Shown here piece by piece: positions 26,250 through 52,353 of a DNA stretch of 64,000 nucleotides. The position numbers and the translations under genes are program-made. The number at the start of each line of letters is the position of its first letter. Position 1 is the first letter of the stretch. Source of the DNA: Spirochaetia bacterium (lineage in GTDB: Bacteria; Spirochaetota; Spirochaetia; DSM-16054; Sediminispirochaetaceae); NCBI GenBank assembly GCA_034520965.1, contig JAXHMY010000001.1, forward strand, positions 480,001-544,000, written 5' to 3'. The notes under the pieces were generated by a model. It ran no database searches. It was not told where the DNA came from and worked only from the letters and a program-made list of their open reading frames with translations.

Positions 26250-28489
26250 TTCCGCATTACGGCGGTATGCGACGCAGCGCGAATAATACGCAGTGAGTTC
26301 GCTACCGCCAGCAAGGCCACCCCAACATCGGCAAACACCGCCGCCCACATACTTGCCGCGCCGGCTATCCCAAGGAGCATCACAACTACCTTCACTGTCA
26401 GGGCGCCGACAATATTCTGCATTACAATTCGCCGAGTATAACCGGCAATACGAAATCCCTGGGCCAGCGTAGCCAAATCATCGTTCATTAACACAATATC
26501 CGCCGCTTCGACAGCAGCATCCGAGCCAAGCCCACCCATCGCAACACCTACATCGGCGCCGGCTAATACGGGTGCATCGTTTATACCATCCCCGACAAAC
26601 ATAACTGAATACTGACCGTTTGCCTCAGCCTTTAGCAATTCGAGGCTGCGCAGCTTGTCTTCCGGGAGCAGACGCGAGTAATAGCGATGGATGCCCGCCT
26701 CTTGGGCAATACGTTTAGCTGTGGTTGCATCATCGCCGGTCAGCATTACGGTGTCCTCTACTCCAAGTTCGTACAATTCCTGTAGTGCCCTGGGGGTCTC
26801 CGGTTTTAATTCATCGGTGATATTGATGTATCCCATATAATTGTTATCCACGGCTACATACACCACAGTCCCCTCCGCATCACAGTCCTCGTGGGGAATC
26901 TGTTCCTGATGCATCAAACGATCGCTGCCGACTGCCACTTGCAAACCGTCTATTCTGCAGAGCATGCCGCGGCCTTTCAGTTCTCTGCTCTCTGATGTAG
27001 CGGCACCTATAGTGTAATCTTCTATATAGGAAGCCTCTTTAGCGGGTATCTCCTGCGAGCTTTCTTCCGCAGCTTCAGCATATTCAGAATAAGCTTGGCG
27101 GATAGCCGTTGCCACGGGGTGCCCCGATTGTCGCTCCCCTGCAGCCGCCCAGCTAAGCAGTCCGCCCTGGCTATAGCCGTTGCGTGGAACAATTTCCGTC
27201 ACCTTGAAGTTACCCTTGGTTACGGTGCCTGTTTTATCGAAGGCTACAGTTTTTACCTTCAATAGACGGTCCAGATACTCGGCTCCCTTCACCAGCAATC
27301 CGGCTCGGGCGGCGGCACCCACTCCGCCAAAATAGCCTAAAGGCACTGATATGACCAACGCACAGGGACATGAAATTACCAGTAGTACCAAAGCCCGATA
27401 CCCCCACACTGATAGGGTTTGCCCGGCAAAAAACAGCGGCGGAACAAGGGCGACCAGAACTGCCGAAATTACCACTATCGGAGTATAATATCGAGCAAAA
27501 CGGGTAATAAAGCGCTCGGTAGGAGCCTTCCGGCCGGCAGCATCTTCAACCATGTGCATCACACGGGCCACGGCAGAGTCATCAGCCAATTTGCCTGCCC
27601 TCAGCCTCAACGAACCTTCTCCATTGACAAATCCGCCCAAAACTTCATCACCCTGGACAACTGATCTGGGAACCGACTCGCCGGTAAGTGCGGAGGTATC
27701 AACGTAGGAGCTTCCCCTTGTTACATGTCCGTCAACCGGAATCTGCTCGCCCGCATAGACCTCTATTTCATCCCCTATGCGGATATCATCTAGATCTACT
27801 TCACGGGGGACCCCATCGGCGGTGATTTTCCGCGCTGTAGTAGGCCTCATATCCAGCAGGGCAGAAATTGAACTGCGCGATTTATCTACCGCCCGGTCCT
27901 GAAAATAATCTCCGATTGTGTAAAAAAGCATCACCCCAACCGCCTCAGGAATCTCGCCAATGGCTATCGCTCCAAAGGTAGCAACTGTCATAAGAAAGTT
28001 CTCATCAAAAACCTTACCATGAAAAATATTTCCTAGGGCAGCGCCGATTACCTTGTACCCCATCAGCAGATATGCCGCTCCAAAGACACCGTACCTTAGG
28101 GTTTTTGAGAGGATCTCCGAAAGTTCTTCCAAGAGCAAAAATTCTCCGAGAATCAGACCGAAGGCAAACAGGAGTATCGAAATAAAAATTCGGTTTTTCG
28201 TCTTTTGAAAAAAGTCTGCTTTTTCTTCAACTTGAGGGACAGAAGTTTTTCGCTGGGAGCCTTTCATTCTTACCTGGGGCTCGGTTTTCCTTATAACCTC
28301 TTCTACTTCAGCCTCATAACCGGCATCGAACTCTATCGATTTTGACACAAAGTTTACATTTACCCGAGAAATACCGGGTATCTTGGCCACATGATTTTCG
28401 ATGGCTGCGGCACACTGGGCACAATCAAGCCCATCCAGGTTGTATTTCTTTGTAACTCCAGTACTGTTTTGCAGCTTCTCTTCCGACAT
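26246..28489 (-). CDS. cadA: heavy-metal P1B ATPase (CadA/ZntA type)
   Basis: GLDCAQC metal-binding domain, TGES, SCPCAL, FDKTGT, GDGINDAP. Confidence 0.92.
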   Translation of the reverse strand: MSEEKLQNSTGVTKKYNLDGLDCAQCAAAIENHVAKIPGISRVNVNFVSKSIEFDAGYEAEVEEVIRKTEPQVRMKGSQRKTSVPQVEEKADFFQKTKNRIFISILLFAFGLILGEFLLLEELSEILSKTLRYGVFGAAYLLMGYKVIGAALGNIFHGKVFDENFLMTVATFGAIAIGEIPEAVGVMLFYTIGDYFQDRAVDKSRSSISALLDMRPTTARKITADGVPREVDLDDIRIGDEIEVYAGEQIPVDGHVTRGSSYVDTSALTGESVPRSVVQGDEVLGGFVNGEGSLRLRAGKLADDSAVARVMHMVEDAAGRKAPTERFITRFARYYTPIVVISAVLVALVPPLFFAGQTLSVWGYRALVLLVISCPCALVISVPLGYFGGVGAAARAGLLVKGAEYLDRLLKVKTVAFDKTGTVTKGNFKVTEIVPRNGYSQGGLLSWAAAGERQSGHPVATAIRQAYSEYAEAAEESSQEIPAKEASYIEDYTIGAATSESRELKGRGMLCRIDGLQVAVGSDRLMHQEQIPHEDCDAEGTVVYVAVDNNYMGYINITDELKPETPRALQELYELGVEDTVMLTGDDATTAKRIAQEAGIHRYYSRLLPEDKLRSLELLKAEANGQYSVMFVGDGINDAPVLAGADVGVAMGGLGSDAAVEAADIVLMNDDLATLAQGFRIAGYTRRIVMQNIVGALTVKVVVMLLGIAGAASMWAAVFADVGVALLAVANSLRIIRAASHTAVMRN

Positions 28490-48957: not shown

Positions 48958-51486
48958 TTAGATATCTATTATTCCAAGCCTGGTAGCATAATGAACTAAC
49001 TCTGCAGCGTTTTTCACCTTAAGCTTGCGAAAAATGCTGGTACGGTGATTTTCAACCGTACGGTAACTTATATAAAGGCTTTGAGCAATTTTTTTTACCG
49101 ATAAACCCTCAGCCAAAAGGCGCATAATCTCCTGCTCCCGCGCAGTGAGGGACTCATAGTCGTTGTCCTGTACATCGTAGAATCGCTGGGGATGTTCCAG
49201 GGCCTTTTGAATTATCACCTCTAGGGTAACTTGATCAAAAAAATACTCGCCCCGCAGCACCTGCTTTATGCCGTCAATAAGGCGCACAGGTGAAGTCTCT
49301 TTGGTCATATACCCGCTCACTCCGTTACTGACCGCTTCCAGCACATAATCACTGCGGCTATACATACTAAGTATGATAATTTTGAGCAGCGGATATTGTT
49401 CACGAAGCTGAGAAACAAGCTCAACCCCTGAACCATCGGGCAGCGAAATGTCAAGAACCACCACGTCGATATCGGAATCTCTTAAGATTTCGCGGAGTTC
49501 TTCGACAGTCTCCGCCTCCCCACTAATAACAATGTCCTTATCTCGCTGCAGAGCAACTTTTACACCATCTCTTACAGGGGGGTGATCATCTACCAGTACC
49601 ACACGAATTCCACGTAGAGTAGACATACTATCGCCTTCCTTCATTAAGGGGGTTACGATAGCATGCCCCTCCCAGAACCGTACGTGCGCAACTAACGCAT
49701 ACGGCTCCTAGCACTAAACATTCGACCATTGCCAGATGTCTTTGCAAATTCTCGGTCTTGGTATTAATTTCCATATCTTTTCAAACGTCTCCCAATTTAT
49801 CTTGTGCTTCTGACCTCTCCGCCTTAGAGCCTTATACAGCGTATATCTGATGTATTTATAGAACTTGTACAGCCCTATTAGATTTCCGTTGACCCCATAG
49901 TAATTGTAGTGCCCAACCAGTTTCCGGCTTAGTGCTCTCACAATCTCCATGACAGGTCGATGCATATTCCATCTAATCCACTGTTTTGCGCTCTCGCGTT
50001 TAGCCTTCAGCTTCTTCTTGCTAGTGAGGTGCAGAACTGTGTACTTACCAGTCCTTGTACTGGCATTCACGTGGGTGAATCCAAGAAAATCAAATGTCTC
50101 CTTGGTTCCTTTGTACCTTCCAAATGGAATGATCCTTGTCTTCTCTTCGGCCACCGTTAGCTTGAACTTTGCAAGCCTTTTAAGCATCACCTCGTAGAAT
50201 CTTTTCGCATCATCCTCGTACTGGAACAATACCACATAGTCATCCGCATAACGGTATAAGTATGCCTCACCCCTCAAACACCTTTTCACTACCTTCTCAA
50301 ACCACAAGTCGAGTACGTAATGAAGATAGACGTTAGCCAGCACCGGCGAAATAAGCCCTCCTTGCGGAGTCCCCTTGTCGCTGTCGCTGACGTTCCCATT
50401 CTCCATGATCCCCGCCTTGAGAAATCTTACTACATAACGGATGAAATTCTTGTCCTGTATATCGTTCTCAAGAAACTTCACCAGCCATTCGTGGTCGACA
50501 TTGTCAAAGAACCCTTTGATGTCGGCATCAAGAATATAATTTACCTTCTTAGTCATGATCGTTTGGTTTATCTCCCGTATCACATCATGACAATTCCGAT
50601 TCGGCCTGAACCCGTAGGAACAGTCCAGAAACCTCGGCTCGTATATCTCAGTCAGCACCTTCGCCATTATTCCCTGTACGAGTTTGTCCTCATACGCCGG
50701 GATTCCCAGCGGTCGTACCGTGCCATCCGTCTTGGGTATGTATGTTCTTCTCACCGCCTGCGGTCTGTAGCTGAAGGATTTCATCCGTCCAAGCAATGCA
50801 TCCACATGCTCTTCCAGTCCGGACTCATAGCTCTCCTTCGTCGCTCCGTCTATGCCTGCGGCTTTTCCTCTGACCTGCGCTCGATGCTCCGCCTTCAGGT
50901 TCTCCCTGTTGACGTAGTGCATGAGCGTCTGCATCTTCGCGTGACTCTCCGACAACCTCCTCAATTCCCCATAACTGTTTTCCACTCTTTCAGAACCTCC
51001 AGTGTTCCTGGTGTTGGCCACAAGAAATACGTTTAATGCCCAGACCCCTTCGCTCCACCGACTTTCACCGGTTTCATCGCTACTATGAGTCTGTCCGATT
51101 GCTGATGCCCCATACAGGTTTCTTGACTCCTCGCCTTTACGTCCCCTATTAGTCCAACGGACAGGACATCAGCCCTCCCAGGTACGCTTGATCTACCTTG
51201 TGTGCTCGCCATGCTCTCAGACCCCGTTGGGTTCTCCGCACTCTCGCCTTTTTCCGAGCGCTTCTTGCTGGTTGCTGTCACATGAAAAACATCACCACCC
51301 AATCTTTATACTAACGAGGCTCAATCACGTTCAACCTTTCGGCTTATGGCTCTCACACTCCTTTACCTACGCTTAAACCTCACCTCACGGCTTCGGCTCC
51401 AAGGCTAAGTACCGGCTGTTGGCTAGACTTTACCGGACAGGGTGTCTCACCCTGCTATATATCAAACGCCGAACTGGCGCACTCAT
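48958..51486 (-). CDS. NarL/LuxR-type response regulator interrupted by a group II intron; exons 51483-51486 and 48958-49613
   Basis: Ligated ATG A|GT GGA ATT CGT gives MSGIRVVLVDDH (660 nt, in frame); LDISLPDGSG, LTAREQEI, TVENHR. Confidence 0.88.
49614..51482 (-). mobile_element. group II intron, apparently complete (1869 nt)
   Basis: 5' GTGCG at 51482; domain V GAGCCGTATGCG..CGCACGTACGGTTC (49675-49707); 13-bp domain VI stem with bulged A at 49620; 3' end AC at 49614. Confidence 0.92.
49714..51021 (-). CDS. ltrA: group II intron reverse transcriptase/maturase without endonuclease domain
   Basis: AAGIDG, RPLGIP, SYGFRP, DADIKGFFD, GTPQGG, RYADD, FDFLGF, X-domain GHYNYY. Confidence 0.93.
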   Translation of the reverse strand: MANTRNTGGSERVENSYGELRRLSESHAKMQTLMHYVNRENLKAEHRAQVRGKAAGIDGATKESYESGLEEHVDALLGRMKSFSYRPQAVRRTYIPKTDGTVRPLGIPAYEDKLVQGIMAKVLTEIYEPRFLDCSYGFRPNRNCHDVIREINQTIMTKKVNYILDADIKGFFDNVDHEWLVKFLENDIQDKNFIRYVVRFLKAGIMENGNVSDSDKGTPQGGLISPVLANVYLHYVLDLWFEKVVKRCLRGEAYLYRYADDYVVLFQYEDDAKRFYEVMLKRLAKFKLTVAEEKTRIIPFGRYKGTKETFDFLGFTHVNASTRTGKYTVLHLTSKKKLKAKRESAKQWIRWNMHRPVMEIVRALSRKLVGHYNYYGVNGNLIGLYKFYKYIRYTLYKALRRRGQKHKINWETFEKIWKLIPRPRICKDIWQWSNV

Positions 51487-51531
51487 GCACAAACTATATC
51501 ATATTTTTTTCTTTTATGGTTCACTATTAAT

Positions 51532-52353
51532 ATGAACATCGATAACTTAGACACAGTCCTGCCGTATATTGTACAGTTAGCCCAGTCCGCCGGAAAGCTG
51601 CAGAGGGAATATATAGATTCCTCCGTTACAATGCAGAATAAAAGCAGTCAGGTTGACCTTGTAACCGAGGTAGATCAACGCTGCGAAGAACTGATTTCCT
51701 CGAATTTGCATACTAAGTTTCCCGAGCATCAGATTTTAGGCGAGGAAGGGGGTTCTCAGGCAAGCACAAGTAATTCTCCGTACAAATGGGTTATTGATCC
51801 GCTGGACGGAACCACGAACTACGTGCATCAAGTTCCGGTGTTTGCAACCTCGATTGCGCTGTTAAAAGACACTACACCGATCCTCGGAGTAGTTCATAGC
51901 GAACCCCTTAAGCGAACCTATACAGCTATTGCCGGGCAGGGGGCGTTTCTTAACTCGACTCGGATCCATTGCTCGGAGACCGGGGATATCAATGCTTCTG
52001 TAGTAGCCACGGGCTTTCCCTACGACCGAGCCACCTCAAAGAAAAACAATGTGAACTACGTTGCCCATATGATCCCACGGGTACGCGGAATTCGTCGTTT
52101 AGGTGTGGCAGCTCTAGATGCCTGTTTTGTAGCTGAGGGAGTTTTTGATGCCTACTGGGAACTGAAAGTACGCCTGTGGGATATCGCCGCAGGGGTATTA
52201 ATTGCTCGGGAAGCGGGTGCAGTGGTACACTACCTCGCCGGTAGGCAGCCATACACCTACGATATACTTTGCGCAGCCCCTACTCTCCACGAAGCTCTGC
52301 TCCAGGAACTACTTACAGTGGATACAGATTTTTCCAGTTTAGCGAGCACCTAG
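51532..52353 (+). CDS. suhB: inositol monophosphatase family protein
   Basis: DLVTEVD, ILGEE, WVIDPLDGTTNY, TGFPY, WDIAAG. Confidence 0.85.
   Translation: MNIDNLDTVLPYIVQLAQSAGKLQREYIDSSVTMQNKSSQVDLVTEVDQRCEELISSNLHTKFPEHQILGEEGGSQASTSNSPYKWVIDPLDGTTNYVHQVPVFATSIALLKDTTPILGVVHSEPLKRTYTAIAGQGAFLNSTRIHCSETGDINASVVATGFPYDRATSKKNNVNYVAHMIPRVRGIRRLGVAALDACFVAEGVFDAYWELKVRLWDIAAGVLIAREAGAVVHYLAGRQPYTYDILCAAPTLHEALLQELLTVDTDFSSLAST

Follow-up and report, generated by a model that had tools for sequence, protein, structure and literature searches.

A group II intron one base behind a spirochaete start codon, and a candidate two-part target of a -10-like box and ATGA

The window, i.e. the whole stretch of 64,000 nucleotides that was analysed, contains a group II intron inserted after the fourth base of a gene encoding a response regulator (ATGA|), so that the remainder of the gene forms exon 2 (Table 1). 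The intron begins with GTGCG, its first base lying at 51482, and ends with AC, so it has the GUGYG...AY form. An intron-free orthologue of the host gene is present in another genome (G006, 95% identical protein), where it is continuous across the site as ATG AGT GGA ATT; this fixes both boundaries of the intron and the start codon of the host gene. The same intron ends are found in two further copies in the source genome, making three own copies in total. Orthologues of the regulator are present in 12 of the 16 genomes of the family. A gene of the inositol monophosphatase family (window 51442-52353, plus strand) diverges from the regulator, and a sigma-70-like site for it lies at 51548-51577.

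Membership of group II is indicated by domains V and VI at the 3′ end, the reverse transcriptase/maturase gene and EBS1-IBS1 pairing at the 5′ junction. Alignment with the Rfam group-II-D1D4-6 model scored 116.9 bits, and domains I-IV and V-VI were both matched. RVT_1 is the sole Pfam match of the 406-amino acid intron protein, no endonuclease domain was detected in it by Pfam, and its best matches in the PDB are group II intron proteins. The protein gene begins 548 nt from the start of the intron, and domain I closes within about 310 nt.

Table 1. Features of the interrupted gene and its intron, in window coordinates.
Feature	Position	Strand	Basis or remark
Group II intron (1869 nt)	51482-49614	minus	Rfam RF02005 and RF00029 matches; copies with the same ends; intron-free orthologue
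Intron-encoded reverse transcriptase/maturase	49714..50934	minus	406 aa from ATG, YADD; in domain IV
Domain V, 5-nt loop	49675..49707	minus	Rfam and fold
Exon 2, NarL/LuxR-type response regulator	48958..49613	minus	Pfam Response_reg and GerE
Id3 hairpin	51271..51296	minus	Folds; compensatory changes in 12 relatives
EBS1, UCAUGU	51280..51285	minus	Changes in step with the 5′ flank (98 sites)
IBS1, GCATGA	51483..51488	minus	Sequence and start of the orthologue; host ATG at 51486..51484
One-sided domain I bulge UUAGUAUAAAGA	51303..51314	minus	Candidate EBS2 (UAUA), could pair with TATA of the -10 box
Extended -10-like box TGnTATAGT	51493..51501	minus	6 nt before the ATG; orthologues and enrichment at insertion sites
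SD-like AAGGAAGG in domain VI	49634..49641	minus	7 nt before the spare AUG; -8.2 kcal/mol with own 16S 3′ end
Spare AUG	49624..49626	minus	13 nt from the 3′ end of the intron; shares the frame of exon 2, giving MSTLR instead of MS

A preliminary description had drawn attention to a stem-loop in domain I carrying UCAUGU, and proposed that this is the EBS1 of an Id3 hairpin, pairing with the last six bases of the 5′ flank. The pairing with GCATGA is as described, in sequence and in position (six out of six, including one G-U pair), and no other hexamer of the 548 nt upstream of the protein gene can pair with the flank at all six positions. The hairpin, with an 8-nt loop UUUCAUGU, is found in the single-sequence fold, in the Rfam alignment and in a consensus fold of 12 relatives. 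When taken alone it is no more stable than shuffled sequences (z -0.94), so its support is comparative, and the single-sequence fold was dropped as proof of the hairpin. In the consensus fold (12 hand-picked relatives, columns 55-63) six of the seven pairs in the two helices below the loop change on both sides.

The wider comparison drew on 163 loci: the best 80 among 161 from genomes, the best 80 among 539 from metagenomes, and the three own copies. Of these, 98 were distinct sites for which the 5′ flank was present and the loop was parsed; the others had no 5′ end, failed the parse or were duplicates, and a few mis-registered rows were kept. In the register of UCAUGU the loop makes 4.65 out of six Watson-Crick pairs with its own flank, compared with 2.18 for shuffled partners (sd 0.12, maximum 2.60 in 2000), a contrast that is overstated because kin are not independent. 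Sliding the register by one or two bases reduced the pairing to at most 1.84 out of six. Pairing is found in 89-96% of sites at positions -1 to -4, in 74% at -5 and in 58% at -6. On these comparisons UCAUGU is the EBS1 of the intron.

EBS1 had been likened to an anticodon reading start codons, and invariance of CAU among relatives had been proposed as a check. UCAU is indeed present in all eight close copies whose loop is readable, with proteins 81-100% identical (the three own copies, L001, L002, L086 and two in the genome G348); in L083 a deletion has removed this part. Position 5 of EBS1 tracks position -5 of the flank at six of seven sites (G-C at three, A-T at two and U-A at one), with one mismatch. 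Invariance of CAU across the whole lineage is ruled out, as at most 19 of the 98 wider sites have CAU within the first four positions of EBS1. The commonest words there are CCUC (19), CACC (9) and UCCU (7), and these pair with Shine-Dalgarno (SD)-like flanks. The anticodon is a fair image of the pairing between CAU and ATG; it implies no ribosome or tRNA-like step.

Readers of start codons occupy four places on a tree of 154 intron proteins, i.e. the group of the window intron, a group of seven introns that end in AUG, the distant intron L150 and a group in transposase genes. Placing them in one clade was rejected by the AU test (p 1e-4, on 36 of the 154 proteins), for which the group was named after the tree had been seen and in which repeated gains and losses are not separated. 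No further copies of the close subgroup were found in the 16 genomes of the family; one of 400 genomes of the phylum has full copies, and viral contigs yielded four distant loci.

The preliminary description took the AUG itself as the core of the target, and this is insufficient. ATGA occurs at 28,358 sites in the source genome and is by itself too common. All eight subgroup sites with a flank have in addition a -10-like box, TAnnnT, placed 6-7 nt before the ATG (TATAGT five times; TAGACT, TACAAT and TAGAAT once each). Among the genomic ATGA sites TAnnnT is found at this spacing at 951 (3.4%) and TATA[AG]T at 41. The features of the two G348 copies were predicted beforehand; ATGA, UCAU and the spacing held in both, and a long reading frame in one. 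The stricter requirement for TATA[AG]T at all close copies failed in both (TACAAT and TAGAAT).

The box is also present in orthologues of the interrupted genes. The second own copy of the intron lies in lepA, and TATAGT is found 7-8 nt before the ATG in all 14 full lepA orthologues of the family (one partial locus was excluded). As judged by eye, TATAGT or TATACT is found at 6-7 nt in five of 11 orthologues of the regulator, other orthologues carry looser boxes, and in one there is a leader that includes an SD sequence. In the source genome an SD motif is found at none of 31 candidate leaderless starts, compared with 38% of all first ATGs. On the minus strand, scanning for the promoter consensus gave neither a -35 match nor a -35/-10 pair. 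The box is probably the promoter of a leaderless gene, from which the host transcript would begin at or close to its start codon, and a second part of the target.

A further set of 98 sites from the wider lineage, each with 40 nt of flank, was searched. A -10 box lies 8-15 nt upstream at 53 of these, with a peak of spacing at 9-11 nt and an extended TG in 34 of the 53; by the rule used 45 sites have no box. The corresponding number was 7.8 for shuffles (maximum 17 in 1000) and 10 of 76 for SD-led starts in the same loci. The association with the -10 box, like the assignment of EBS1, appears well supported by these comparisons.

The box could however be a consequence of survival and not part of the target. 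If EBS1-AUG pairing alone directed the intron to start codons, copies lying behind a promoter would be those that are transcribed, survive and spread. Such an explanation would draw on the invariance of UCAU and ATGA in the close subgroup, and on a report that these introns have no promoter of their own (available text of PMC12584367). Yet SD-led starts are also transcribed and would be equally rescuable by domain VI, and no subgroup site out of eight lacks a box at the exact spacing; TAnnnT at that spacing is found in only 84 of 1224 first-ATGA starts. Moreover three of the seven sites described below are not start codons. We therefore regard targeting by EBS1 alone as very unlikely.

If the box is part of the target, it may be read by the intron RNA. 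Domain I contains a one-sided bulge that includes UAUA, and this could act as EBS2. Across 70 relatives the bulge tetramer pairs better with its own flank (-9 to -18) than with shuffled partners (z 6.1-6.4; L044 was dropped from the test), and z falls to about 1.5 when the register is moved by four bases; A/T-rich words pair easily by chance, and these values should be read with that in mind. TATA in the bulge accompanies a -10 box in the flank (33, 7, 7 and 23; Fisher p 8e-7, ignoring kinship), and relatives with no -10 box carry other bulge words that match their flanks. After correction for the tree the covariation is only suggestive, 13 independent pairs keeping the trend, with 6.1 in the same direction versus 0.7 in the opposite (median p 0.07, not significant). 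The spacing from the box to the site is variable (8-15 nt), unlike the usual adjacent IBS2, and the G348 boxes TACAAT and TAGAAT pair less well with UAUA. This leaves room for recognition by the protein or at an open complex. For introns of groups IIE and IIF, EBS2-IBS2 pairing is dispensable for splicing in vitro and a role in homing has been proposed (available text of PMC3753933), which agrees with a contact placed upstream of the transcript. The bulge is a candidate reader of the -10 box.

An alternative retains the same EBS1 and leaves the box unpaired, with the intron entering at the open complex of RNA polymerase, or with the protein reading the box. At an open complex the partner of EBS1 would be the non-template strand, exposed there at about +1 to +4. 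Sigma-70 needs the T, the A and the last T of the -10 hexamer, and these are exactly the positions kept in all eight subgroup sites. With the spacing peak of 9-11 nt, insertion would fall where the bubble ends on its downstream side, and the extended TG in the majority of the wider boxes points in the same direction. Against this, the -10 box in an open complex is held by sigma itself, one copy of the intron lies in the middle of a coding region, and in lineages with no box bulge and flank still vary together. We consider this route unlikely, though less so than targeting by EBS1 alone, and return to a box that is read at least in part by the bulge.

The nature of the sites bears on what is recognized. 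The ATG at the window intron is the true start of its gene, as judged from the G006 orthologue, and long reading frames open from the ATG at four of the seven subgroup sites with both flanks known (the window, lepA at the same +4 position, L165 and L083). At the other three no gene begins with the ATG. The third own copy falls within a coding frame with 68 open codons ahead of the site and 90 beyond it, and its ATG is not in that frame; L168 is in the leader of a transposase that has its own SD and start; and L002 is a few bases upstream of a real start. The proposal that the intron targets start codons thus holds for the window site and fails for these three, so that the intron appears to read a DNA motif typical of leaderless starts and not the function of a start codon.

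The genes carrying the other own copies have further irregularities. lepA (G000:C2) is frameshifted near codon 380, and the protein of the intron copy there (L162) is also shifted; these may be errors of assembly or decay. The third copy (G000:C3:54398-59859; L163 and L164) holds within the intron a 3.6-kb element, IS66-like by its protein sequences, and its host gene is itself frameshifted upstream.

A replacement start in domain VI had been suggested. Both an SD sequence and an in-frame AUG are present there. The pairing energy with the anti-SD of the source genome is -7.8 to -9.6 kcal/mol in all seven introns of this spare-AUG type, including the distant L150, and +0.4 kcal/mol in two relatives that have the same AUG and other targets. 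In the seven introns that end in AUG the SD pairing is -5.3 to -8.6 kcal/mol. Use of the spare SD and AUG by the host is a plausible function of the 3′ end, although the frame of the spare AUG is set by one geometry (13 nt, +4), so that in-frame copies are not independent evidence.

The spare signals could alternatively be by-products of the sequence of the stem, with the host gene expressed only after splicing, or never. The AUG is one base away from the 3′ consensus of the family, it is predicted to be buried in a 13-bp stem, with a probability of being unpaired of at most 0.06, and the relatives that target starts in transposase genes (L006, L092, L094 and L095) have no spare start. On the other side, the distant L150 repeats the same geometry of SD and AUG, and a separate group of seven introns ends in AUG itself with an SD before it. 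A start codon lies 3-14 nt downstream of 3′ ends that bear an SD and are of the hairpin type at 40 of 50 sites, versus six of 53 for other ends (five of 36 short ends and one of 17 long ends with no SD). By-products seem to us a possible explanation of the domain VI signals, yet a doubtful one, and we continue to favour their use by the host.

The relatives show several other arrangements of insertion site and 3′ end. The AUG-ending introns (L011, L028, L114, L115, L120, L128 and L137) form a well-supported group inserted directly behind ATG or GTG, and the end of the intron provides the ATG following an SD. In two of them (L011 and L028) the J2/3 position expected to pair with the intron's final base is occupied by C, as against G in the remaining aligned relatives (by eye). 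In several introns of this group the bulge word UACC could pair with a host SD sequence. Five introns (L006, L092, L094, L095 and L100) interrupt IS transposase genes that appear to be leaderless, again at position +4; their domain VI is short and they have no spare start.

In relatives that target SD sequences (such as L093, L101, L016 and L156) some 29 nt separate the SD of domain VI from the start codon. This spacing could be shortened if the last six bases of the intron folded onto a conserved hexamer complementary to them; by geometry the resulting 3′ hairpin would reduce the median from 29 to 10 nt (n = 42). The hairpin is predicted to pair with low probability, the median being 0.03 and the value greater than 0.5 in seven of 42. 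A more distant clade (about 47% identity; L062, L065, L067, L069, L073, L075 and L078-L080) lies 8-11 nt behind extended -10 boxes, with varied EBS1 sequences and a short domain VI; in many cases the SD belonging to the gene itself follows downstream of the insertion. Two introns (L029 and L154) lie inside other group II introns as twintrons, and have a different, matching bulge word.

Some sequences join intron ends to one another. In an RNA-library contig of a relative the last base of the intron is joined exactly to the first, and an exact head-to-tail junction supports the boundaries of the intron. The contig may be an excised circle, which one IIF member is known to form (available text of PMC3753933), or a tandem copy, as found for a groEL intron (available text of PMC12584367). 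In L081 (1488-1495) an intron end is followed by 7 nt ending in ATGA and then by an intron start, and in L138 end and start directly adjoin; these junctions could be tandem copies, circles or assembly loops. No exon-exon joint was seen in assembled contigs from four of 22 listed runs. In a further RNA-library contig, from run X17 and with its loose end at window 49614, a different exon 2 follows the end of the intron; read by hand, the 30 bases shown of this exon contain no stop in the frame set by the spare AUG. The several recent copies and the one head-to-tail contig are indirect indications that the intron may be mobile and self-splicing.

It is useful to compare the intron with known systems. 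Group IIC introns (class C) sit behind intrinsic terminators, recognizing a hairpin at the end of a transcription unit, and have no EBS2. Like these, the window intron combines a short EBS1 pairing with a second upstream feature and so would reach many sites of one genetic context; it differs in using a promoter-like sequence at the start of the unit, and no terminator-like site was found in 51400-51700. RmInt1 homes into insertion sequences, unlike the window intron, which lies at gene starts. The two resemble each other in the lack of an endonuclease, and for both insertion into the lagging-strand template would be expected (available text of PMC8914252). The strand of the intron is the G-rich strand at all three own sites, which weakly fits such insertion, these being three sites only.

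The IIB1/CL1 introns lie within or adjoining the start and stop codons of ordinary host genes, and have a 5′-subterminal insertion of 300-700 nt; the member studied has a CL1 protein with an endonuclease (available text of PMC12584367). The window intron shares the position at a start codon, and CL1 insertion can likewise replace a translation signal (the groEL stop codon, same text). It differs in having only 548 nt before the protein gene, with no large 5′ insertion, in having no C-terminal endonuclease match, and in the -10 box at its targets. Since both structural characteristics of CL1 are absent, it is not a member of IIB1/CL1.

Features listed for groups IIE and IIF are a 5-nt loop in domain V, an extra bulge in Id3 and an alpha-prime sequence at the tip of a stem-loop (available text of Nagy et al. 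2013, PMC3753933). The window intron has the 5-nt loop in a small ribozyme, together with an Id3 stem that is interrupted by an internal loop in the consensus fold. A conserved GGCGAG at a hairpin tip is a candidate alpha-prime that could pair at five out of six positions with the Ib loop (by eye). With two of the three listed RNA features it may be described as an IIE/IIF-like, endonuclease-less intron, a likeness that is drawn from features of the RNA. The available text of PMC3753933 contains no promoter or start-codon targeting, and the phrase 'start codon' is found zero times. Terminator and mobile-element contexts, and no promoter targeting, are described in the available texts of PMC7306698, PMC8919778, PMC4028801 and PMC7923331. 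A literature search, with most subscription papers outside its scope, found no description of promoter- or leaderless-start targeting or of this lineage.

Taken as a whole, we think it probable that the intron has a two-part DNA target, in which EBS1 reads ATGA and the bulge, the protein or both read the -10 box. Covariation shows that EBS1 (UCAUNN) pairs with NNATGA, which places the insertion one base behind the ATG, and the association suggests that the -10-like box 6-7 nt before the ATG is also required. The box may be read at least partly by the bulge UAUA as EBS2, perhaps helped by the protein. A box followed by ATGA is typical of the start of a leaderless gene, so that true start codons would be struck most often, and look-alikes in leaders and genes as well. 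Both the box and positions -5 and -6 of IBS1 would lie upstream of the transcript, so these contacts could act on DNA only. By analogy with RmInt1 the DNA target is probably single-stranded at a replication fork. The intron would gain a seat directly behind a promoter, and the cost to the host may be limited by splicing together with the candidate use of the spare SD and in-frame AUG present in domain VI. The relatives would follow the same plan, with EBS1 set to the SD or to the first transcribed bases and the 3′ end bearing the matching spare part.

The lineage thus appears to be aimed at the 5′ ends of transcription units, the subgroup of the window intron reading a -10 box plus ATGA. A broader picture is conceivable, though we would put it forward only tentatively. 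A widespread lineage would use its EBS sequences as readers of expression signals, EBS2 being set to the sigma-70 -10 box (the SD in one group) and EBS1 to the AUG or SD. It would insert at the transcription start, possibly in an open complex, leaving a 5′ exon of 4-5 nt, and a 3′ end that rebuilds the displaced signal would have evolved several times. An unspliced copy would make a leaderless gene SD-led, with translation set against the folding of domain VI, and this could act as a switch.

How the IIB1/CL1 introns find start codons is stated to be unknown (available text of PMC12584367); the different lineage analysed here offers a testable rule, i.e. a -10 box plus ATGA. This rule would make these introns the promoter-side counterpart of the terminator-seeking IIC introns. 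The model predicts an EBS2 that works on DNA only, and a 5′ exon as short as about 4 nt at splicing. For genes that bear such introns, annotation pipelines will place the start wrongly. Intron ends that give back a ribosome-binding site or a start codon have evolved repeatedly, and this would explain how these introns can occupy genes such as lepA.
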